A program made the position numbers and the translations under genes. Of a DNA stretch of 64,000 bases, positions 2,147-59,671 are shown piece after piece. Source of the DNA: Tidjanibacter sp. (GTDB lineage: Bacteria > Bacteroidota > Bacteroidia > Bacteroidales > Rikenellaceae); assembly GCA_045580045.1 (NCBI GenBank), contig JAZNNC010000025.1, forward strand, positions 20,367 to 84,366. Direction: 5' to 3'. The notes beneath the pieces were generated by a model. That model searched no databases. It saw nothing but the letters and a program-made list of their open reading frames with translations, and had not been told where the DNA came from. Each line of letters opens with the position of its first letter. Position 1 is the first letter of the stretch.

Positions 2147-3553
2147 ATGGCAAGAAACAGACACCCCAGAATTGAGGGACTCGAAATAACCTCTTTGGCT
2201 GCCGAAGGCAATGCCATGGGTAAGTGGAACGACATTGTGGTATTTGTGCCGATGGCCGTACCGGGCGATGTTGTAAACGTACAGATTCGCACCAAGCGCA
2301 GGCGTTATATGGAGGGCTACGTTACGGAATACATCAAGCGTTCGCCCCTGCGTGTGGAGCCATTTTGTGGCCACTTTGGCGTGTGTGGCGGTTGCAAGTG
2401 GCAGAGCATACCATACAGCGAGCAGCTCGCCTTCAAGCAGCAGCAGGTGGCCGACCAGCTCACCCGCATCGGACACGTGGAGATTCCTCCCATCAGCCCA
2501 ATCCTCGGCTCGGCCAAGACCGACCATTACCGCAACAAACTCGAATTTACCTTTGCGCCCAAGAGGTGGAAAACCTACGAGGAGGTGGCTCGTGGCGAGG
2601 AGATTGGCGATAGGCCCGCACTCGGCTTCCACATCCCCGGAATGTTCGACAAGGTGCTCGACATCGACTACTGCCACCTGCAAGCCGAGCCATCCAACGC
2701 CATACGCAACGAGTTGCGCCGCTACTGCACCGAGCACGAGGGGTATGAGTTCTACGACATCCGTCAACACTCGGGCCTGATGCGTAACGTGGTAATCCGC
2801 ACCGCCTCCACAGGTGAGGTTATGGTCATTGTGGTCTTTGCCCAAGACAAGCCCGAACTTATCACCCCCCTGATGGAGCACCTCAAAACGACCTTCCCCG
2901 AAATCACCTCGTTGGTCTATATGATTAACGACAAACTCAACGACTCGCTCGGCGATAGGGAGCCCATCCTCTATGCGGGCCGCGACCACATCTTCGAGCA
3001 GATGGAGGGGCTTCGCTTCAAGGTTGGCCCTAAGTCGTTCTACCAGACCAACTCGGAGCAGGCCTACGAACTCTACAAGGTGGCTCGCTCGTTTGCCGAC
3101 CTGACGGGAGAAGAGGTGGTCTATGACCTCTACACCGGCACCGGCACCATTGCCAACTTTGTGGCCTCGAAGGCCAAGAGTGTGGTGGGTGTGGAGTATG
3201 TGGAGGAGGCCATTGAGGATGCCAAAGTGAACTCCGCCCTCAACGGCATTGGCAACACCACATTCTATGCCGGCGATATGAAAGACGTGATGAACGATGC
3301 CTTTGTGGAGGCCAACGGAAGGCCCGACGTGGTCATCTTGGACCCTCCGAGGGCTGGTGTACACGAGGATGTGATTGCCACCATCCTCCGAGCAGCCCCC
3401 GAAAGAATTGTCTATGTGAGTTGCAACCCTGCCACGCAGGCTCGCGACCTTGCACTGATGGACGCACAATACAAAGTGGTGGCGGTGCAGCCGGTGGATA
3501 TGTTCCCCCACACCCACCACGTTGAGAATGTAGTAAAACTAGTAAGGCGATGA
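2147..3553 (+). CDS. rlmD: 23S rRNA (uracil-1939-C5)-methyltransferase
   Basis: TRAM N-terminus, CGHFGVCGGCKWQ Fe-S motif, SFYQTN, DLYTGTGTI, DPPRAG, YVSCNPATQARD, VDMFPHTHHVE. An alternative TTG start lies at 2129. Confidence 0.95.
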   Translation: MARNRHPRIEGLEITSLAAEGNAMGKWNDIVVFVPMAVPGDVVNVQIRTKRRRYMEGYVTEYIKRSPLRVEPFCGHFGVCGGCKWQSIPYSEQLAFKQQQVADQLTRIGHVEIPPISPILGSAKTDHYRNKLEFTFAPKRWKTYEEVARGEEIGDRPALGFHIPGMFDKVLDIDYCHLQAEPSNAIRNELRRYCTEHEGYEFYDIRQHSGLMRNVVIRTASTGEVMVIVVFAQDKPELITPLMEHLKTTFPEITSLVYMINDKLNDSLGDREPILYAGRDHIFEQMEGLRFKVGPKSFYQTNSEQAYELYKVARSFADLTGEEVVYDLYTGTGTIANFVASKAKSVVGVEYVEEAIEDAKVNSALNGIGNTTFYAGDMKDVMNDAFVEANGRPDVVILDPPRAGVHEDVIATILRAAPERIVYVSCNPATQARDLALMDAQYKVVAVQPVDMFPHTHHVENVVKLVRR

Positions 3554-4167
3554 AAAGATTGTTTGCAACCATAGTGGCCACGTTGTGTGGCCTGTGGGCC
3601 CTCTCGGCCCAACTTACCGTGGTGGAGGCCCCCGAAACCGACGCTGTCTATCGCATCCCCTTGAAGAAGGGCGTGGTTGTACAAGCCGAAAGACTCTCAC
3701 CCTTGCAGTGTGGTATGGCACAGCACCTCAACCTCGTGGATTTCTGCACTTGGAAGTTCACCACCAAAGAGCCCTCGGAGGTGTATGCTGCGAGGGATGG
3801 TGTGGTTGTCGAAACGTCGAGGGACAAGGTGCGCCTGCTCCACAAGGAGGGTATCTACACCGACTATTTGGGCATTTCCAACGTGAAGGTGGCGCAGGGA
3901 GAAAAAGTAAAGGCCGGTACACCCATCGCATCGGCACGAGTGAGCGACTCCAACAAGCCCGACTTGTGCAGGTGGAGTGTGGTGGTAATGACATTCCACT
4001 TCCGCACCAACCCACAGTATGGACAATTTGCCCTCAATGGAGCCTACGAGCACCTGATGCAATTCGTTGACCCCATATTCACCATCCGTGGGGAGTGTAA
4101 GACACATCTTACGGATGGTGGAGCCTACACGGTGCGCACCCGCACGTGGTGTTGGCCTTGGGAGTAG
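3550..4167 (+). CDS. Secreted protein with a degenerate M23-peptidase-like (duplicated hybrid) domain
   Basis: Signal peptide MKRLFATIVATLCGLWALSAQ; VYAARDGVVV...H.EGIYTDY...VKVAQGEKVKAGTPIA resembles M23, but the Zn-ligand His motifs are absent. ATGA overlap with rlmD. Confidence 0.6.
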   Translation: MKRLFATIVATLCGLWALSAQLTVVEAPETDAVYRIPLKKGVVVQAERLSPLQCGMAQHLNLVDFCTWKFTTKEPSEVYAARDGVVVETSRDKVRLLHKEGIYTDYLGISNVKVAQGEKVKAGTPIASARVSDSNKPDLCRWSVVVMTFHFRTNPQYGQFALNGAYEHLMQFVDPIFTIRGECKTHLTDGGAYTVRTRTWCWPWE

Positions 4168-4238
4168 GGAAAGTGGGCACGCTATTTGTCCCAACCCCTC
4201 ACATACAACAAGAAAAAGAACCTAAATTCATAACCACT

Positions 4239-4694
4239 ATGAAACAGCAACTAACACTCAACTACCTCCACTACGAGGCCATAGAGGAGATGCCTGCCGA
4301 AGAGCAGGAGCTCGTGCGTGCTGCCGAGCAGGCTTGCGGCAAGGCCATCGCCTCCTATTCCCACTTCCACGTTGGAGCAGCGGCAAGGCTCGCAAGTGGA
4401 CGCATCATCACAGGTAGTAACATCGAGAGTGAGGTCTATCCCGCAGGCCTTTGTGCCGAGCGCACCCTCCTCTACCACCACCAAGCCACCACCCCCGAGG
4501 ACAAAATCGTGGCCCTCGCCATAGCCTCCGTGCCCAGCCACAGGGAGTGCTATCCGTGTGGTCAGTGCCGTCAGGTGTTGCACGATGTGGAGAAACGCCA
4601 AGGGGCCGATTTCAAGGTCATTATGAGTGGTGCAGGCACCGCCACAGTGGTCGAGAAGGCCAGCGACCTGCTGCCATTTACATTCATACTCTGA
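4239..4694 (+). CDS. cdd: Cytidine deaminase
   Basis: YSHFHVGAA, GLCAER, PCGQCRQ zinc motifs. ATG at 4239 chosen over the upstream track start. Confidence 0.92.
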   Translation: MKQQLTLNYLHYEAIEEMPAEEQELVRAAEQACGKAIASYSHFHVGAAARLASGRIITGSNIESEVYPAGLCAERTLLYHHQATTPEDKIVALAIASVPSHRECYPCGQCRQVLHDVEKRQGADFKVIMSGAGTATVVEKASDLLPFTFIL

Positions 4695-4728
4695 CACTCA
4701 CAAACAAAACCATAAGACAACCCAAGCG

Positions 4729-5421
4729 ATGTTCAACAAACACGACATACTCTACGAAGACAACCATCTGCTGGCGGTCAACAAACACGCCGGCGACCTT
4801 GTGCAGTCCGACACCGAGGGAACGCTCGGTTTGGAGGACCACATCAAGGAGTATATAAAAATCAGGGACGAGAAACCCGGCGATGTGTTCCTCGGTGTGG
4901 TACACCGCATCGACCGCCCCGTCAGTGGCGTGGTGCTCTTTGCCAAGACCAGCAAGGCCCTTGTGAGGCTCAACGAGATGGTGCGCAACCGCAACATAGA
5001 CAAGCGTTATTGGGCCATCACGGAGGAGGCTCCCGAGGAGTTGGAGGGTACATTGGTGCACTACATCAGCCGAGATGGTAAGACCAACAAAGCCTCGGCC
5101 TACAACTCCCAAAAGGGCGATGCCAAGAGGGCCGAGTTGCGCTACAAACTCCTCGGTGGCAGCAAGAACTACAAGCTCCTCGAAGTGGAACTCATCACAG
5201 GTCGTCATCACCAAATACGTTGCCAACTCTCCAAGGTGGGTTGCCCCATCAAGGGCGACCTGAAATATGGTGCCAAGCGCAGCAACGTGGGCGGTGGCAT
5301 TTCGCTCCACTCGCGCAGTGTGGAGTTCCTCCACCCCGTAAGGAAGGAGCCCATCAAAATCGTTGCCCCCGTACCCGAGGGCGATGCTCTGTGGCAGTTC
5401 TTTGAGGAGAGCCAAGGGTAG
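4729..5421 (+). CDS. RluA-family RNA pseudouridine synthase
   Basis: ILYEDNHLLAVNK, VHRIDRPVSG (catalytic Asp), ITGRHHQIR, GDLKYG. Confidence 0.92.
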   Translation: MFNKHDILYEDNHLLAVNKHAGDLVQSDTEGTLGLEDHIKEYIKIRDEKPGDVFLGVVHRIDRPVSGVVLFAKTSKALVRLNEMVRNRNIDKRYWAITEEAPEELEGTLVHYISRDGKTNKASAYNSQKGDAKRAELRYKLLGGSKNYKLLEVELITGRHHQIRCQLSKVGCPIKGDLKYGAKRSNVGGGISLHSRSVEFLHPVRKEPIKIVAPVPEGDALWQFFEESQG

Positions 5422-5426
5422 GGATG

Positions 5427-5447
5427 AAAATTCAAAATTCAAAATTC
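5427..5447 (+). repeat. Heptamer tandem array (AAAATTC)x3
   Basis: Read directly; starts 6 nt after the rluA stop. Confidence 0.85.
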
Positions 5448-5469: not shown

Positions 5470-5910
5470 ATGAAGCGCAGTGTAAAGAACATACTATTGA
5501 GTATGTTGGGTTTTTCGGCAGCACCCATTCTGACTGCCTGCTATGGTATGCCCGAACCTGGTCCAGACCAATATTGGGACAAGGATTTCAAAGGCAAAGT
5601 TACCGACACATCGGGAAATCCCATTGAGGGAGTGAAGGTCTATGTGGGCCAGAGGGATTATGCCTTCCCAGACTACATATACACCCCCGTTGCAGGCCAC
5701 AACCCCACAATGACCAATGCCGAGGGTAACTTCACAATACACGTTGGCACCGTGCCACACGAAACATACTTCGTGGCCGAAGATGTGGATGGGCTTGACA
5801 ATGGGCACTACCACACTACCGAAGAGTGGCTGATGCACTTTGACGGCGTAATTGAGATGCAGGAGGTTATCTCCGACAACGAAGAAGAAACAGTCGCCCC
5901 CACCGAATAA
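5470..5910 (+). CDS. Radical-SAM-associated lipoprotein (TIGR04134-like), paralog 1
   Basis: Signal MKRSVKNILLSMLGFSAAPILTAC (lipobox Cys24) followed by YGMP; GNPIEGVKV, TNAEGNF and EDVDGLDNGHY; directly upstream of the rSAM/SPASM gene. Confidence 0.85.
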   Translation: MKRSVKNILLSMLGFSAAPILTACYGMPEPGPDQYWDKDFKGKVTDTSGNPIEGVKVYVGQRDYAFPDYIYTPVAGHNPTMTNAEGNFTIHVGTVPHETYFVAEDVDGLDNGHYHTTEEWLMHFDGVIEMQEVISDNEEETVAPTE

Positions 5911-5920
5911 GTTCTATCAA

Positions 5921-7042
5921 ATGAAAAAGGCAAAAAAGATAGGCCTGCGCAAGCGACTTGCGCTCAATCTCTTTGCAAGTATCAAAAAGGAACTCGCAAA
6001 GGAGCACGAGTTACGCGAGATTTTCTGGGAGTGTACGCTGCGTTGCAACCTCAACTGCGGGCACTGCGGTAGCGATTGTCGCAGTAGTGCCACCGTGCCC
6101 GATATGCCTGCCGAGGACTTCCTGCGAGCCATCGACCAAATCACCCCACACGTGAACCCCAACAGGGTGATGGTGGTCATCACCGGTGGCGAGGCACTCT
6201 GCCGTAAGGACCTTGAAGCGGTGGGGCGTGAACTCTACAAGAGGGGCTATCCGTGGGGTATTGTCACCAACGGTATGTTGCTCACTCGTGAGCGTATGGA
6301 GTCGCTCGTGAGGGCCGGCCTACGCTCCATAACCCTTTCGCTCGATGGCTTTGAAGATGTACACAACGCCATACGTCGCCACCCACACAGTTGGCGCAAC
6401 GCTGTGAGGGCACTGGATGCCATTGTCGCCACCGAAGGCATTGCCTACGACGTGGTTACCTGCGTGGGGCCACACAACTACGCCTCCCTGCCCGAACTGC
6501 GAGATTGGCTCATTGAGCGAGGGTGCAAGGCGTGGAGGCTCTTTACGATATTCCCCGTGGGCAGGGCTGCCGACAACGATGAGTTGCAACTCTCGTCGGA
6601 GGAGTACCGAGGGCTGATGGAGTTCATCATCGCCACCCGCAAGGAGGGACGCATCAAGTGCGACTACGCCTGTGAGGGTTTCCTCGGAGGCTACGAGGCC
6701 GAGGTGAGGGATAGGTTCTTCGGCTGTATGGCGGGAGTGAGCATTTGCGGCATAAAGATAGACGGCGCCATCAGTGCCTGCACAAGCATACGCGCAGGAT
6801 TTGACCAAGGCAACATCTACACCGACAACATCTGGGAGGTGTGGAACACCCGCTTTGAGCCCTATCGCAACCGCGAGTGGGCACGCAAGGGGGAGTGTAA
6901 GGATTGCAAGGTGTGGAAGTTCTGTCAGGGCAACGGTATGCACCTCTACGACAACGACCACAACCTGCTACACTGCAACTATAAGAGAATTCAGAATTCA
7001 GAATTCAGAATTCAGAATTCAAAATTCAAAATTCAAAATTGA
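5921..7042 (+). CDS. Radical SAM/SPASM enzyme (TIGR04133-like, rSAM/lipoprotein system)
   Basis: WECTLRCNLNCGHCGSDC (CxxxCxxC), ITGGE, SPASM-type CMAG...AC...GNI...CKDCKVWKFCQGNGMH. ATG at 5921 (MKKAKKIG). Confidence 0.9.
   Translation: MKKAKKIGLRKRLALNLFASIKKELAKEHELREIFWECTLRCNLNCGHCGSDCRSSATVPDMPAEDFLRAIDQITPHVNPNRVMVVITGGEALCRKDLEAVGRELYKRGYPWGIVTNGMLLTRERMESLVRAGLRSITLSLDGFEDVHNAIRRHPHSWRNAVRALDAIVATEGIAYDVVTCVGPHNYASLPELRDWLIERGCKAWRLFTIFPVGRAADNDELQLSSEEYRGLMEFIIATRKEGRIKCDYACEGFLGGYEAEVRDRFFGCMAGVSICGIKIDGAISACTSIRAGFDQGNIYTDNIWEVWNTRFEPYRNREWARKGECKDCKVWKFCQGNGMHLYDNDHNLLHCNYKRIQNSEFRIQNSKFKIQN
6986..7041 (+). repeat. Heptamer tandem array (AGAATTC)x5 (AAAATTC)x2 AAAATTG
   Basis: Eight units read directly; the array lies inside the last codons of the rSAM CDS. 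Confidence 0.97.
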
Positions 7043-7123: not shown

Positions 7124-7144
7124 GAATTGAGAATTGAGAATTAG
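7124..7144 (+). repeat. Heptamer tandem array (GAATTGA)x2 GAATTAG
   Basis: Read directly. Confidence 0.75.
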
Positions 7145-12581: not shown

Positions 12582-13682
12582 ATGGCATTACAATGCGGCA
12601 TAGTGGGCCTGCCCAACGTGGGCAAGAGCACCCTTTTCAACTGCCTCTCCAACGCAAAGGCACAGGCAGCAAACTTCCCTTTCTGCACCATCGACCCCAA
12701 TGTGGGCGTAATCACCGTACCCGACCAGAGGCTTACCAAACTGGCCGAGATTGACAACCCCAAGCGAGTCATCCCCACAACCATCGAGATTGTGGACATC
12801 GCAGGCCTCGTTAAGGGCGCATCAAAGGGCGAAGGTTTGGGTAATAAGTTCTTGGCAAACATTCGCAACACGGATGCTATCATCCACGTCCTGCGTTGTT
12901 TCGACGACGAGAACATTACCCACGTTGACGGCACCGTTAACCCTGTGAGGGACAAGGAAATCATCGACACCGAACTCCTCCTCAAAGACCTCGAAACAAT
13001 CGAAGGTCGCATCGGCAAGGTACAGAAGCAGGCAGCCATTGGAGAGAAAGCCGCCAAGCGTCAGTATGAGATTTTGTGCCGCTACAAGGAGGCCATCGAG
13101 GGCGGTAAGGCTGCACGCACTGTGGAAATTGACAACAAGGAGGACGCCAAGTGGGTGCAGGAGCTCTGCCTGCTGACCAACAAACCCGTGCTCTATGTTT
13201 GCAACGTGGACGAGGCAAGCATCACAAGTGGCAACGCCTATGTGGATGCTGTGCGTGAGGCCATCAAGGAGGAGAATGCCGAATTGCTCGTTGTGGCCGC
13301 AGCCACCGAGGCCGACATTGCCGAGTTGGATAGTTACGAGGAGCGTCAGATTTTCCTCGAAGAGTTGGGTATTGAGGAGTCGGGCGTGAGCCGCCTTATC
13401 AAGGCCGCCTATGCGTTGCTGGGACTTGAAACATTCTTCACCACCGGTGCCGACGAGTCGAGGGCGTGGACCTACACTCGTGGCTACAAAGCCCCACAAG
13501 CCGCTGGTGTTATCCACAGCGACTTTGAGCGTGGTTTCATCCGTGCCGAGGTAATCAAATATGACGACTACGTTGCGCTCGGTAGCGAGAAAGCTTGTCG
13601 CGAGGCGGGCAAAATAGGCATCGAAGGCAAGGAGTACATCGTGCAGGATGGCGACATTATGCACTTCCTGTTCAACGTCTAA
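12582..13682 (+). CDS. ychF: Redox-regulated ATPase YchF (Obg family)
   Basis: GIVGLPNVGKST, NFPFCTIDPN, DIAGLVKGASKGEGLGNKFL, GVIHSDFERGFIRAE, YIVQDGD. Confidence 0.98.
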   Translation: MALQCGIVGLPNVGKSTLFNCLSNAKAQAANFPFCTIDPNVGVITVPDQRLTKLAEIDNPKRVIPTTIEIVDIAGLVKGASKGEGLGNKFLANIRNTDAIIHVLRCFDDENITHVDGTVNPVRDKEIIDTELLLKDLETIEGRIGKVQKQAAIGEKAAKRQYEILCRYKEAIEGGKAARTVEIDNKEDAKWVQELCLLTNKPVLYVCNVDEASITSGNAYVDAVREAIKEENAELLVVAAATEADIAELDSYEERQIFLEELGIEESGVSRLIKAAYALLGLETFFTTGADESRAWTYTRGYKAPQAAGVIHSDFERGFIRAEVIKYDDYVALGSEKACREAGKIGIEGKEYIVQDGDIMHFLFNV

Positions 13683-13684
13683 TT

Positions 13685-13713
13685 CAAACTGCAAAATATC
13701 AAAATTCAAAATT
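13685..13713 (+). repeat. Degenerate heptamer array (CAAAATT-type)
   Basis: caaactg caaaata t caaaatt caaaatt directly after the ychF stop. Confidence 0.55.
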
Positions 13714-13721
13714 ATAATCCT

Positions 13722-15254
13722 ATGGATAGAAAAGTAAGGGTTAGGTTTGCACCCTCGCCCACCGGCGCACTTCACATTGGCGGTGTTCGTACCGCACTCT
13801 ACAACTACCTCTTTGCCCGCCAAAGGGGTGGCGACTTCATCCTCCGCATTGAGGATACCGCCTCCACACGTTATGTTCCCGGAGCCGAAGAGTATATTAT
13901 GGAGTCGCTCGAATGGTGCGGCATCAAGATTGACGAGGGAGTACGCGAGGGAGGCCCCCACGCACCCTATCGTCAGAGTGAGCGTAAGGAGATTTACCTC
14001 AAATATGCACTGCAACTCGTGGAGAGCGGCAATGCCTACTACGCATTCGACACCCCCGAGGAGCTCAACGCCCTACGTAGCGATTTGGAGGCCAAAGGCG
14101 AAACATTCTGCTACAACTATGCCGTGAGGGAGCAGCTTGCCACCTCGCTGCGTCTGTCGGCCGAGGAGGTCGAGGAGCGCAAAGCTCGTGGCGACCAATG
14201 GGTTATCCGTTTCAAAATGCCCGAGAACGAGGTAGTGAAGATGGACGACCTCATTCGTGGCCACGTGGAGATGAACACCTCCACCCTCGACGACAAGGTG
14301 CTCTACAAGTCGGCCGACCAACTCCCCACCTACCACTTGGCCAACATCGTGGATGACCACCTGATGGAAATCAGCCACGTTATTCGTGGCGAGGAGTGGT
14401 TGCCCTCGTTGCCCCTGCACTACCTGCTCTACCGTGCCTTCGGTTGGGAGGAGAGCCGCCCCGAGTTTGCACACCTTCCCCTCTTGCTCAAACCCACCGG
14501 TCAGGGCAAGTTGAGCAAGCGCGATGGCGACAAGTTGGGCTTCCCTGTATTCCCATTGAAGTTTGTTGCCCCCAGCGGTGAGGTTTCGAGGGGCTACCGT
14601 GAGGATGGCTATTTCCCTGAGGCATTTATCAATATGCTCGCACTCTTGGGCTGGAATCCCGGCACCGAGCAGGAGATTTTCTCTATGGAGGAGTTGATTG
14701 AGGCATTCTCGTTGGAGCGTGTAGGCAAGTCGGGCGCACGATTCAGCCCCGACAAGGCACACTGGTTCAACGCACAGTATATGCACACGCGCGACAATGA
14801 GGAGTTGGCCGACATCTACACCGCACAACTAGCCGAGCGCGGCATCAATATCGAGCGCGAGAAGGCACTCCGCATCGTGGCCCAAATCAAGATGAGGGCT
14901 ACCTTCCCCGAGGAGTTTTGGTCGCTCTCTTCGTTCCTCTTTGAGGCCCCCACAGCCTACGATGAGAAGGCCACCAAGAAGTATTGGAAACCCGATGCTC
15001 CACGCATTATGGGCGAGTTGAAGGCTCTCTTGGAGGGCATTGAGGAGTTCACCACCGAGAATTTGGAGAAAGTGTGTGGCGAGTGGATTGCCGCCAACCA
15101 GATTGGTATGGGCCTTGTGATGAACGCTTGGAGGCTCTGTATCGTTGGCGAGCCCAAAGGCTTTGGTATGTATGATATGTGTGCCGTGTTGGGCAAGGAG
15201 GAGACTCTCCGCCGCCTGAATAGCGCACTTGCAGTGTTGCCTTCGGCCTTGTAG
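13722..15254 (+). CDS. gltX: Glutamate--tRNA ligase
   Basis: [14 protein letters not shown] (HIGH), [30 protein letters not shown] (KMSKS). Confidence 0.98.
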
Positions 15255-15282
15255 GTGAGGATAGTAGAGATAGATTTTTTGC

Positions 15283-15314
15283 AAAAAAGTTGCACCGAGA
15301 AGTGCAACTTTTTT
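15283..15314 (+). terminator. Intrinsic terminator after gltX (bidirectional shape)
   Basis: aaaaaagttgcac-cgagaa-gtgcaactttttt. Confidence 0.75.
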
Positions 15315-15334
15315 GTTATCGTGCAACTTTTGAG

Positions 15335-15371: not shown

Positions 15372-15869
15372 ATGAAGGCTAAAACTACCGCAAAATTGCT
15401 CGCCCTGCTGGGCTTTTCCACTGCGGCCAACTCGTGTGAAGCACTCAATGAAATTGGTGGCGGAGGAGGTTTGGTTATGTATGGTTCGCCAAGCGCATCC
15501 TATGAGTTTAATATTGATGTGGAGGACGTAAACGACGGAAAACCCATCGAGGGTATCCGAGTCAGTTTATTGGAGCGAGGCTACTACCACAACAGCACCA
15601 CGCAGGAGAGAGAGGAACACATTGACACCCTCGCCAAAGGTTTGACCAACGCACAAGGCAAGGTGGTTCTGAAACACGGAGGTTCACCCATCAACTACGA
15701 CACTCCCGAGTTTGCTGCCGACGATGTAGATGGTAGTGAGAATGGCGAATACAATTCCAACAACGTGGAAATCAAAATCGACCGAAATGAGTTTGTTGAT
15801 GACGACGACAACTCGTGGTCTTGGGGCAAGGTAACAAAGGATATAACACTCAAACTTACGAAGAAATAG
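15372..15869 (+). CDS. Radical-SAM-associated lipoprotein (TIGR04134-like), paralog 2
   Basis: MKAKTTAKLLALLGFSTAANSC lipobox, VMYGSP, GKPIEGIRV, TNAQG and DDVDGSENGEY match the blocks in 5470-5910. Confidence 0.85.
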   Translation: MKAKTTAKLLALLGFSTAANSCEALNEIGGGGGLVMYGSPSASYEFNIDVEDVNDGKPIEGIRVSLLERGYYHNSTTQEREEHIDTLAKGLTNAQGKVVLKHGGSPINYDTPEFAADDVDGSENGEYNSNNVEIKIDRNEFVDDDDNSWSWGKVTKDITLKLTKK

Positions 15870-16000: not shown

Positions 16001-16486
16001 ATGAAGACTAAATTGATATATAGAATTCTCACCCTGCTGGGTTTTGCAACCGCTGCAACCGGATGCGAGATTGGCAAAGTAATGTATGGCTCCCCCGTTA
16101 TCGTTCCGGGGCCCGATATGTATGGTTGTCCATTTGCTGAATATGTGGCTAACATCGACGTTACCGACAAAGAGAACACCCCTCTTGCCGGCATCAGAGT
16201 TGGACAAGTAGTAACATATAAAACAAAGGACCAGACCATTACCGACACTCTTATAATGGGTGCTACCAATTACAACGGTCGTTTCACTCTGCAAGGAGGA
16301 GATACCTCACTTCCAACATTGCAGTTAGTTATTGAAGATGTAGATGGTGAGGAAAATGGCGGAGAGTTTGCTCCCGCCGACACCACCATAGTCTTCGACG
16401 AAGAGGATTATGTCGGTGGTGGTGATGGCGATTGGAATTTGGGCCAATACGTCAAGAACGTGAAAATAGAACTCGAAAAGCAATAG
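16001..16486 (+). CDS. Radical-SAM-associated lipoprotein (TIGR04134-like), paralog 3, with a duplicated MYG-x-P motif
   Basis: MKTKLIYRILTLLGFATAATGC lipobox; VMYGSPVIVPGPDMYGCP; TPLAGIRV, TNYNGRF, EDVDGEENGGEF. Confidence 0.87.
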   Translation: MKTKLIYRILTLLGFATAATGCEIGKVMYGSPVIVPGPDMYGCPFAEYVANIDVTDKENTPLAGIRVGQVVTYKTKDQTITDTLIMGATNYNGRFTLQGGDTSLPTLQLVIEDVDGEENGGEFAPADTTIVFDEEDYVGGGDGDWNLGQYVKNVKIELEKQ

Positions 16487-35130: not shown

Positions 35131-35158
35131 AAAATTGAAAATTGAAAACGGAGAATTG
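35131..35158. repeat. Heptamer array AAAATTG AAAATTG AAAACGG AGAATTG
   Basis: Read directly; inverted relative to 35221-35255. Confidence 0.75.
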
Positions 35159-35220
35159 AGATTTTATAAAAAACAACCACTTTTTTCACCCTCAAATAGG
35201 CATTTTATCGCCTTTTTCTA

Positions 35221-35255
35221 CAATTTTCAATCTTCAATTTTCAATTTTCAATTTT
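35221..35255. repeat. Heptamer array of five CAATTTT-type units (one CAATCTT)
   Basis: Read directly; ends 7 nt before the ssrA -7 box. Confidence 0.9.
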
Positions 35256-35737: not shown

Positions 35738-35874
35738 CGTTGTAATGGCAGACATATTTCGTCTTGCCAAATAAAAAACGGCATTTTTTTTGGTTTGGTA
35801 GAACAACAATCAAGAAAAAGAGATACCTTTGTGGCAACATACTGAATATACATTTTTTATCATCATTCAAGACA

Positions 35875-37308
35875 ATGAAGACAACAGATTTCCCCGTGAG
35901 GGCACACTCTGAAAGCGAAGAGAGCTACAAGACTTTCACCAAAGACAAACGCAGTCGCACTTCCAGACCACAGGCACTCTATTCCACCTCATCCTACAAT
36001 CGCGCCCCAAAGAGCGAGGAGAGTGTTGAGCGCCGTTCGTTCAACCCCAACTTCACACGCGACAACCGACTAATCGACCGCAACAGGTCATCCTATGGCC
36101 GCTCGGAACGTAGCGAAGGAGGCTACAACCGCGAGGAGAGGCACTCGTTCAACCGCGAGCGCAATTTCAACCGTGAGGAGAGGCCTTCGTTCGGCCGCGA
36201 GCGCAGTTTCAATCGCGAGGAGGGTTACAACCGAGAGGAGAGGCCCTCGTTCAACCGCGAGCGCAACTTCAACCGTGAGGAGAGGCCTTCCTTCAAACGC
36301 GAACGCAATTTCAATCGCGAGGAGGGCTACAACCGAGAGGAAAGGCCTTCGTTCAACCGCGAGCGAAATTTCAACCGAGAGAACAATCAAGAGGGAGGTT
36401 TCCGTCCTCGTCATAATAAGTTTGGCAGCAAGCCGTCATTCGGCCACGACAAGGGTGGTTTTGCGCCCAAGAAGAGCAGCGGTAAGTTCCACTCCGAGCG
36501 TGCGCCCAAAGAGCCCAAACCTTTTGTAAACACAGCCAATACCTATACGTTGGAGAACTACCCCTCCTATGCAGCACCCAAAATTGAGGGCGAGATTCGT
36601 CTGAACCGCTATATCTCTATGTCGGGCATCTGCTCTCGCAGGGAGGCCGACGAGTATATCACCTCCGGACAAATCACCGTCAATGGAGAGGTCGTTACCG
36701 AGTTGGGTTCGAAGGTACACCAGAACGACGTTGTATGCTACAACGGCAAACAGATACACAACGAGAAGAAGGTCTATATTGTGATGAACAAACCCAAAGG
36801 TTTTGTTACCACTCTCGACGACCCACACGCCGATAAGAGTGTGATGGACCTCGTGAAGAACGCCTGTACGGAACGCATCTACCCTGTGGGGCGTTTGGAC
36901 AAAAACAGCGTGGGCGTGTTGTTGCTGACCAACGATGGCGACCTTGCAAAAAAGCTCACTCACCCCACCTATGAGAAGAAAAAAATCTATCAGGTGAGTC
37001 TTGACAAACGTCTGGCAAGGGCCGATTTGGAGCGTCTGATTATGGGTATCACCCTCGAAGATGGCGACATTGCCGCCGACGACGTTTGCTACGTTGACGA
37101 CCCCACTTGTAAGAATGCTGTCGGCATCGAGATTCACTCGGGCCGTAACCGTATTGTAAGGCGTATGTTTGAGCACGTCGGCTATCGTGTCGGCAAGCTC
37201 GACAGGGTGTATTTTGCAGGTCTGACGAAGCAAAAACTCAAACGTGGCGAGTGGCGATTCCTGACCGAAAAAGAGGTCTCGATGCTCAAATCGGGCAACT
37301 ACGAGTAG
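35875..37308 (+). CDS. RsuA/RluB/RluF-family pseudouridine synthase with an S4 domain and a long repetitive N-terminus
   Basis: IRLNRYIS..GICSRREAD (S4), NKPKG, RIYPVGRLDKNS, GRNRIVRRMF, LDRV. ATG at 35875. Confidence 0.93.
   Translation: MKTTDFPVRAHSESEESYKTFTKDKRSRTSRPQALYSTSSYNRAPKSEESVERRSFNPNFTRDNRLIDRNRSSYGRSERSEGGYNREERHSFNRERNFNREERPSFGRERSFNREEGYNREERPSFNRERNFNREERPSFKRERNFNREEGYNREERPSFNRERNFNRENNQEGGFRPRHNKFGSKPSFGHDKGGFAPKKSSGKFHSERAPKEPKPFVNTANTYTLENYPSYAAPKIEGEIRLNRYISMSGICSRREADEYITSGQITVNGEVVTELGSKVHQNDVVCYNGKQIHNEKKVYIVMNKPKGFVTTLDDPHADKSVMDLVKNACTERIYPVGRLDKNSVGVLLLTNDGDLAKKLTHPTYEKKKIYQVSLDKRLARADLERLIMGITLEDGDIAADDVCYVDDPTCKNAVGIEIHSGRNRIVRRMFEHVGYRVGKLDRVYFAGLTKQKLKRGEWRFLTEKEVSMLKSGNYE
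36115..36381 (+). repeat. Coding tandem repeats (REERPSFN / RERNFN / REEGYN)
   Basis: Visible in both the DNA and the protein. Confidence 0.9.
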
Positions 37309-48216: not shown

Positions 48217-48262
48217 ATTCTGAATTCTGAATTCTGAATTTTGAATTTTGAATTTTCAACTT
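48217..48262 (-). repeat. Heptamer array (minus strand AAAGTTG (AAAATTC)x3 (AGAATTC)x2)
   Basis: tgaattc/tgaattt units read directly; immediately downstream of the stop of 48264-48821. Confidence 0.92.
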
Positions 48263-52937: not shown

Positions 52938-52972
52938 CAATTTTGAACTTTGAGTTTTGAGTTTTGAATTTT
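52938..52972. repeat. Heptamer array CAATTTT GAACTTT GAGTTTT GAGTTTT GAATTTT
   Basis: Read directly; ends 5 nt before the -7 box TATATTTG at 52978-52985. Confidence 0.8.
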
Positions 52973-59642: not shown

Positions 59643-59671
59643 TGAGATTGGAAAATTGAAAATGGAAAATT
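59643..59671. repeat. Degenerate heptamer array (GAAAATT-type) upstream of the nusB -7 box (59624-59631, minus strand)
   Basis: tgagatt ggaaaatt gaaaatg gaaaatt. Confidence 0.6.

Follow-up and report, generated by a model that had tools for sequence, protein, structure and literature searches.

What does a radical S-adenosylmethionine (SAM) enzyme do when its gene is coupled to that of a lipoprotein? The question is raised by a gene pair at positions 5470 to 7042 of a 64,000-nucleotide stretch of DNA, here called the window, whose source is a Tidjanibacter-like member of the Rikenellaceae. The first gene (5470–5910, plus strand, stop codon included) codes for a lipoprotein of 146 amino acids, and the second (5921–7042, same orientation) for a radical SAM/SPASM enzyme of 373 amino acids, whose ATG lies 10 nt past the lipoprotein stop codon. 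Searches with hidden Markov models (HMMs) matched the enzyme to TIGR04133 over the full length of the model (572.5 bits, cutoff 425, positions 1–350 of 350) and to the Pfam domains Radical_SAM (PF04055, 72 bits) and SPASM (PF13186, 28.8 bits), and the lipoprotein to TIGR04134 (47.1 bits, cutoff 39.8). Two further TIGR04134 genes, also on the plus strand, are unlinked to the pair and sit 9–10 kb from the enzyme gene: paralog 1 (15372–15869, 165 amino acids, 81.1 bits) and paralog 2 (16001–16486, 161 amino acids, 82.1 bits). A profile scan of the whole window found no TIGR04134 member beyond these three. With all models above cutoff and the two genes adjacent, the locus is the TIGR04133/TIGR04134 radical SAM/lipoprotein system, as a preliminary description of this DNA had proposed. 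The system is already catalogued in TIGRFAMs/NCBIfam, where its entry is a "hypothetical equivalog" without assigned function, and it has been "hypothetical" for over a decade. What is new here is the analysis of a conserved motif in the lipoproteins, the recognition of short members without a folded domain, and a link to PlpX-like enzymes.

The signal peptide of the lipoprotein gene adjacent to the enzyme (MKRSVKNILLSMLGFSAAPILTAC, 5470–5541, plus strand) ends in a canonical lipobox, L-T-A-C, with its cysteine at position 24, and the mature protein starts YGMPEP right after it. Together with Cys24, the Y-G-M-P sequence (5542–5553, plus strand) makes up an X-Y-G-x-P motif that we propose as the modification site, the signal peptide being a candidate leader element. 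The preliminary description had pointed to YG-x-P near the lipidated cysteine in two more paralogs as well, and the translations agree: paralog 1 reads ...NSC-x14-MYGSP (lipobox Cys 15435–15437, MYGSP 15477–15491) and paralog 2 reads ...TGC-x5-MYGSP...MYGCP (lipobox Cys 16064–16066, MYGSP 16082–16096, MYGCP 16118–16132), its two sites lying 5–17 residues past the cysteine. All three signal peptides, ending in L-T-A-C, N-S-C and T-G-C, place these residues behind a hydrophobic h-region. In close homologs of the adjacent lipoprotein, whose overall identity goes down to 37–45%, residues 1–24 are either invariant or above 90% conservation. The first 28 residues as a whole are near-invariant, and C24, Y25, G26 and P28 are invariant.

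A pattern scan that took one genome from each GTDB species returned at least 583 confirmed homologs of the enzyme. We analyzed the neighbourhoods of the best 80 of these at least 583 loci, which come from Rikenellaceae, Parabacteroides, Bacteroides, Prevotella, Paludibacter, Azobacteroides, Tannerella and others, and of a second, independent sample of 80 metagenome loci picked for nearness to an enzyme of Treponema (46–77% identical to that enzyme). In the genome sample, an iterated profile detected TIGR04134-like open reading frames (ORFs) in 78 of the 80 loci. The two loci that it missed, both from Prevotella, have small lipobox ORFs beside the enzyme that read ...FMACYGPAP... and ...RKVVYGPRP..., and at least one lipobox ORF with x-Y-G is present in 80/80 loci. 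Family ORFs lie on the enzyme strand in every case (114/114) and mostly upstream (99/114), in one to five copies per locus, with a median stop-to-start gap of 6 nt (50 nt or less in 61/69). No second conserved neighbour emerged when flanking ORFs of these 80 loci were clustered, the next most frequent family being found in 11/80; no protease, transporter or RiPP recognition element (RRE)/PqqD gene is conserved around the enzyme (RiPP, a peptide made on the ribosome and modified after translation), and no cofactor-pathway or tetrapyrrole genes are conserved near it. Across all 160 loci, nothing but the lipoprotein genes is conserved next to the enzyme; they share its strand and mostly lie within 50 nt. 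The lipoprotein/enzyme pair is thus real and self-contained, and it has two components.

The preliminary description had set conservation of YG across homologs beforehand as a test of its proposal. In the genome sample, YG follows the lipobox cysteine in 109 of 117 family proteins, at a distance of 1–59 residues (median 12). The residue before it is Met in 60 cases, Glu in 26 and Cys in 15; the residue at +2 is V, T, M or S, and +3 is Pro in 84/109. The metagenome sample gave the same picture, with YG after the lipobox cysteine in 75/76 proteins, Pro at +3 in 61/75, and E (37), C (15), M (13) or K (6) before the dipeptide. Since the background frequency of YG in unrelated neighbouring proteins is 0.0027 per residue, this conservation is far beyond chance. 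YG is near-invariant throughout Rikenellaceae, Parabacteroides, Bacteroides, Prevotella, Paludibacter and Azobacteroides and on a Treponema plasmid, so that the proposal passed this test. The signal-peptide pattern LLxLLGF...C is likewise kept across the 160 loci.

The motif is also present in family members that lack the folded domain. About 30 members are short (66–110 amino acids) and without a beta-sandwich; they come mostly from Alistipes and other Rikenellaceae and are encoded directly upstream of the enzyme (loci L010, L012, L013, L020, L026, L031, L041, L063, L077 and others). Searches of the TIGR04134 type pick up these ORFs only with an iterated profile. Their parts are the conserved signal peptide, a linker that is polar and of low complexity, a sharply conserved core of the form (I/L/V)-x-(L/V)-M-Y-G-(V/P)-(P/R)-x-P and an acidic tail, and visible constraint is limited to the signal peptide and the MYG core. 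As judged from the translations, this is the architecture expected of a RiPP precursor.

In the lipoprotein adjacent to the enzyme, an AlphaFold (AF2) model contains a beta-sandwich at residues 33–129, with a predicted local distance difference test score (pLDDT) mostly above 90, whereas residues 1–30, YG included, have a pLDDT of 46–51. Because this low-scoring segment lies ahead of a confident sandwich, the motif is predicted to sit in a flexible or disordered tether, outside the fold. Fold and domain searches liken the sandwich to the SusC N-terminal extension and to carboxypeptidase-regulatory-like domains, and the fold search gave no functional clue beyond this generic similarity. We also considered that YG-x-P might merely be the first strand of the beta-sandwich. 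This is ruled out because the domain-less members retain the motif, and also by the model, where the motif precedes the first strand by at least 8 residues. Taking these sequence patterns together, we consider it probable that the TIGR04133 enzyme acts on the X-Y-G-x-P motif.

As to the reaction, the closest analogy is provided by the PlpX-type spliceases (InterPro IPR026482, equivalent to TIGR04103), radical SAM/SPASM enzymes that excise tyramine at X-Tyr-Gly (PMC11414181, PMC10533398, PMC11626197); the account of them given in the preliminary description agrees with this literature. In nature, splicing takes place at MYG and LYG, and the splice tags of PlpA have the sequence PIRP(L/M)YGLPI (PMC10533398). 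On a Nostoc plasmid, a Nif11 precursor ending ...IALYGLPPELF adjoins a TIGR04103 enzyme. An extended motif (M/L)-Y-G-x-P is thus common to splicease sites and the lipoprotein family. The tyramine spliceases (PlpX/PcpX with PlpY, and the binary RhaX, RcsX and RasX) resemble the window enzyme in combining a radical SAM domain with a SPASM-type C-terminal region, and their substrates share X-Tyr-Gly with the lipoproteins, X being commonly Met or Leu and +3 often Pro (YGLP vs YG[VTSM]P). Some of these systems are binary, with the enzyme and the precursor alone, as here. They also share the cluster signature WE-T-L-C-N-L-C-H-C-G-S with the TIGR04133 enzyme. On the other hand, the substrates in the present system start with the signal peptide of a lipoprotein and mostly contain a folded beta-sandwich, a Nif11/NHLP leader and a PlpY/RRE partner are absent, and the enzyme is 26% identical to a TIGR04103 member, lies outside that clade and has different auxiliary cysteines.

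Sequence comparisons place the enzyme near the spliceases. In a tblastn search of 72,556 plasmids, its best non-family match was a PlpX-like enzyme of Aureibacter (34% identity; BLASTP 1e-41), followed by TIGR03913 "GDL-motif" maturases (28–30%) and the Nostoc TIGR04103 enzyme (26%). Conversely, TIGR04133 is the third-best NCBIfam model for the Aureibacter enzyme (175 bits). By these matches, the nearest non-family relatives of the enzyme are PlpX-like enzymes (TIGR04103/TIGR03913). In a simple neighbour-joining distance tree of 25 sequences and 336 columns, with few outgroups, TIGR04133 is monophyletic (100% bootstrap). It falls into a superclade with an Agathobacter enzyme, the PlpX-like enzymes and one Clostridium enzyme (70% bootstrap), set against MftC, TIGR04053, TIGR04347, a Rhizobium heme-like enzyme and a Microbulbifer enzyme. 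YG peptides adjoin the enzymes in every branch of this superclade except Clostridium. The window enzyme carries the radical SAM [4Fe-4S] motif CNLNCGHC (6044–6067, plus strand), invariant in the enzyme alignment, inside the signature FWECTLRCNLNCGHCGSDC. Within the 25-sequence sample, the pattern W-E-x-T-L-x-C-N-L-x-C-x-H-C-G-S is common only to TIGR04133, Agathobacter and PlpX-like enzymes, and the same holds for DG(F/L)E..H(N/D), W(R/Q), G-x-YE and DG.I..C.S. The SPASM-type auxiliary cluster region (6671–6976, plus strand) has seven invariant cysteines (C251, C269, C287, C326, C329, C335 and C352).

Several observations weigh against reading the enzyme as a splicease. Its score with TIGR04103 is 122.3 bits (cutoff 725) and with TIGR03913 121 bits, no better than those with NirJ2 (TIGR04055, 140.5 bits) and AhbD (TIGR04545, 124.6 bits), and it is below the cutoff of 500 for both of the latter. 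Its secondary HMM matches are spread over NirJ2, AhbD, TIGR04053, TIGR04103 and TIGR03913, while a true TIGR04103 member, Nostoc C057, reaches 853 bits on TIGR04103. In the tree, the PlpX-like clade (TIGR04103, TIGR03913 and Tropicibacter) has 100% bootstrap with TIGR04133 outside, and a group of TIGR04133 and PlpX-like enzymes alone has 3%. The auxiliary cysteine pattern is unlike that of PlpX-like enzymes, with an extra Cys in ACEGF and none at the GGC position. Neither an RRE/PlpY-like partner nor a Nif11/NHLP leader was found in the neighbourhood, although the conserved signal peptide may supply a helical leader by analogy. As for the substrates, a few members have Y-A for Y-G (TCVACYAPYD, CYACPD), Ala being the sole replacement of Gly; the YYVLYF subclass is without the motif; and in the adjacent lipoprotein X is the cysteine predicted to be lipidated. 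Judged by HMM score and tree, then, the enzyme is a cousin of the spliceases and not a member of their family. The splicease-like label of the preliminary description is partly supported, in so far as the nearest non-family relatives are PlpX-like enzymes beside YG peptides. Structure gave little more: a sequence search of the PDB with the enzyme returned generic radical SAM matches (BlsE, 7vob, 4.5e-19; MoaA, SkfB, PqqE and CteB), and the AF2 model of the enzyme alone, for which 14 sequences were aligned, averages a pLDDT of 56.8 and falls below 50 in the cluster and SPASM regions.

The relatives themselves extend the analogy. The closest non-family enzymes found (29–34% identity) belong to TIGR03913 GDL-motif/DUF1843-DUF1842 systems of Azospirillum, Burkholderia, Ralstonia and Aureibacter. 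Their neighbours are peptides and proteins of about 200 amino acids: MLYGG, KPYGV and QPYGA occur in the DUF1843 peptides, alongside Y-A or Y-M variants that turn up occasionally, as in the lipoprotein family, and two DUF1842/1843 proteins read AMYGV and PMYGV. Since both the peptides and the proteins have x-Y-G (or Y-A/Y-M), the TIGR03913 systems look like splicease systems acting on peptides and proteins. In contrast to the lipoproteins, their substrates lack signal peptides and are helical peptides or proteins of the cytoplasm, and in contrast to the 373-residue enzyme the maturases have 470–520 amino acids, with a C-terminal extension, and form a clade with TIGR04103 (100%) from which TIGR04133 is excluded. 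In Burkholderia pseudomallei (plasmid, 123–1404), Azospirillum oryzae (1588–2303) and Aureibacter tunicatorum (2144–2857), x-Y-G (or Y-A/Y-M) stands just before an ...A(S/G)GDL helix.

A plasmid of Agathobacter rectalis carries a further pair, in which an unannotated 35-residue ORF (2336–2443; MFNLEELSLEFVKISELKTSKNLFGPVMYGTGVRM) ending ...GPVMYGTGVRM lies upstream of a radical SAM/SPASM gene (2525–3679). The Agathobacter enzyme groups with the PlpX-like clade (78% bootstrap), and by its sequence this is likely a pair of the splicease type, so far uncatalogued, in a Firmicute of the human gut.

By analogy with these systems, we tentatively propose a splicease-like maturation of the pre-lipoproteins in which the reaction is tyramine excision, a proposal that we place just short of an even prospect. 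Because the enzyme has no signal peptide and because radical SAM clusters are oxygen-labile, it would have to act in the cytoplasm before export, as anSME does on sulfatases. Here the preliminary description needs revision: it had taken the folded lipoprotein as the substrate, whereas an enzyme without a signal peptide would meet the unfolded precursor, and the motif is predicted to lie in a disordered tether. The cytoplasmic TIGR04133 enzyme would thus work on fresh, unfolded TIGR04134 pre-lipoproteins before Sec export and lipidation, both on the lipoprotein encoded upstream and, in trans, on the two paralogs. The unusual conservation of the signal peptide, compared with the leader helix used by binary spliceases (PMC11414181), suggests that it is the recognition element of the enzyme; LLxLLGF...lipobox Cys would be read as a RiPP-like leader or recognition helix. 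The Tyr of X-Y-G-x-P would then be modified in the tether between the lipid-anchored cysteine and the beta-sandwich: a tyramine equivalent (C8H9NO, -135.07 Da) would be cut out by radical chemistry and the backbone re-joined. Sec export, Lgt/LspA processing and membrane anchoring would follow, and the exported lipoprotein would show an electrophilic keto-amide near the membrane. In the adjacent lipoprotein this group would lie directly at the anchor, because X is the predicted lipidated cysteine itself, while in the paralogs it would lie 14 and 5–17 residues out.

A precedent for modification before export is given by two other SPASM radical SAM enzymes. anSME converts Cys or Ser to formylglycine in a full-length cytoplasmic protein before export, and QhpD makes Cys-Asp/Glu thioethers, also before export. 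The pre-export logic is the same as that proposed here, whereas the chemistry and the motifs differ and sequence similarity is weak.

Among the alternatives, the one that survives best keeps the target and changes the chemistry. On the X-Y-G-x-P motif the enzyme could instead form a cyclophane from Tyr to residue +2 or another C-C, C-O or C-S cross-link, epimerise a residue, or dehydrogenate or hydroxylate the Tyr; we regard this as rather unlikely. The peptide reactions of SPASM enzymes are many and cannot be predicted from family membership, the enzyme stands outside the PlpX-like clade with its different auxiliary cysteines, and the bias to V/T/M/S at +2 with Pro at +3 could also suit a Tyr-x-X3 cross-link. 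However, cyclophane motifs have a variable middle residue, where the lipoproteins have a near-invariant Gly, as splice sites do. A cross-link to X is unlikely because position -1 varies (M, E, C, K), and a triceptide maturase is disfavoured because the roughly 35 residues before CxxxCxxC leave no room for an N-terminal RRE domain. Moreover, the nearest relatives are PlpX-like and not known cyclophane, sactipeptide or ranthipeptide synthases.

A more distant alternative is that the lipoprotein is no substrate at all. The enzyme would then make or modify a small molecule or cofactor, of a tetrapyrrole-like or nucleoside-like kind, and the lipoproteins would be binders or carriers in which YG-x-P is a structural, sorting or processing motif. 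The top non-self HMMs, NirJ2 (140 bits) and AhbD (125 bits), speak for it, as does the closest solved structure by sequence, that of the small-molecule enzyme BlsE. The NirJ2/AhbD similarity can be dismissed as a clue to the type of substrate, because a bona fide PlpX-family peptide enzyme gives the same secondary matches, with TIGR04133 among them at 152 bits. In addition, cofactor-pathway genes are not conserved near the genome-sample enzymes, the domain-less short members have nothing with which to bind a ligand, and the signal peptide is conserved well past what export needs. We consider this second alternative improbable. Finally, modification elsewhere on the pre-lipoprotein, at the lipobox Cys (formylglycine-like or thioether) or at a signal-peptide residue with YG-x-P serving for docking, is very improbable: the lipobox Cys is the other invariant residue, stands directly before Tyr in the subclass of the adjacent gene, and protein Cys or Ser is what anSME-type SPASM enzymes oxidise before export, but a Cys-to-YG spacing of 1–59 residues disfavours any fixed Cys-Tyr relationship, an oxidised Cys would abolish lipidation, and the anSME model scores poorly, outside the top 25 models for the enzyme.

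Tyramine excision, if it occurs here, would have consequences beyond this locus. The full proposal is that gut Bacteroidales and some spirochaetes splice tyramine from the X-Tyr-Gly of pre-lipoproteins, with the signal peptide doubling as a RiPP leader, to give alpha-keto-amide lipoproteins; we hold it as a possibility, with somewhat more doubt than confidence. Were it true, an alpha-keto-amide electrophile would be displayed on full-size, lipid-anchored and possibly surface-exposed proteins as well as on short tethered peptides. Backbone splicing would for the first time be met naturally in proteins that are exported and membrane-anchored, beyond cytoplasmic RiPP precursors, and a signal peptide would be shown to serve as the recognition element of a maturase. 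According to reviews, neither a native spliceotide product nor a natural function is known (PMC9811515, PMC8868522), and the modification, so far known only from heterologous expression, would gain a native role. Synthetic peptides derived from spliceotides are active, which is the basis for the idea of a covalent-reversible trap for Ser/Cys proteases (PMC9811515). By extension, and speculatively, the lipoprotein keto-amide, the warhead of the preliminary description, might act as a protease inhibitor or covalently capture Ser/Cys proteases; a protease-reactive group on the envelope of abundant gut bacteria would bear on host and microbial protease biology. If the chemistry proves different, the system would add a new reaction to the SPASM repertoire, on a motif of five residues that is well defined. 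Among the species-representative genomes with the enzyme, at least 583 in GTDB, are those of the cultivable gut species Parabacteroides distasonis and Phocaeicola massiliensis.

Scott et al. (Chem 2022, 8:2659) reportedly screened radical SAM-SPASM proteins for YG-rich neighbours, with 27 tested and 939 predicted systems. Our search of the open literature, which did not take in this survey, found no paper characterising TIGR04133/TIGR04134, and the family may already be flagged in the survey. In the literature searched, TIGR04134 is mentioned only in a review of type IX secretion (PMC11611037), as a model of the type B C-terminal domain of the type IX secretion system, evidently by a wrong accession.

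Outside the Bacteroidales, the pair is also found on the megaplasmid pTS1 of Treponema saccharophilum (2797–5089), where the lipoprotein reads ...GTLTSCYGMPENYY. It adjoins a gene annotated as "master DNA invertase Mpi family serine-type recombinase". The proximity of this Bacteroides-type invertase gene suggests that the Treponema pair came by horizontal transfer from Bacteroidales, and the pair is possibly expressed in a phase-variable manner. In the pTS1 spacer we saw an imperfect inverted repeat at 3539–3586 and nothing better.

Within the window, some further features of the locus deserve mention. The best genome match of the enzyme, among the matches listed, is 97% identical and comes from a metagenome-assembled genome of Tidjanibacter from sheep colon. 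RNA evidence for the locus was sought, and the matches came solely from DNA metagenomes of goat and other guts. A TTG at 5852 was considered as an alternative start of the enzyme ORF; it overlaps the lipoprotein gene, is without counterpart in homologs and is very likely spurious because homologs start at the ATG position. At its other end, the enzyme gene runs into an array of 7-bp repeats (AGAATTC/AAAATTC; 6986–7042, plus strand) that takes the place of the usual gene end, so that the ORF extends 16 residues (QNSEFRIQNSKFKIQN) beyond the homologs. This tail is missing from all of them and is probably not functional protein sequence.

Short tandem arrays of the same A/T-rich 7-bp unit (AAAATTC, AGAATTC, GAATTGA, CAATTTT) occur between genes throughout the window, at 5427–5447, 6986–7040, 7124–7142, 13681–13713, 35131–35159, 35221–35255, 48217–48254, 52939–52972 and 59651–59671. 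A 19-nt version of the array has 10 matches in the window, against 0 expected by shuffling, and the arrays may represent an intergenic repeat specific to this genome or an element associated with promoters or terminators. Between a gltX-like gene (13722–15254) and paralog 1, a perfect 14-nt inverted repeat (CAAAAAAGTTGCAC / GTGCAACTTTTTTG, 6-nt loop) at 15282–15315 is probably a terminator, in which case the lipoprotein paralogs would have their own promoter. Elsewhere, a pseudouridine-synthase-like ORF (35764–37308), with an S4-like and a catalytic part, has a long N-terminal low-complexity region, where tandem units of 42, 60 and 102 bp at 36117–36386 encode repeats of FNRE(E)R(P/H)SFNRERN.

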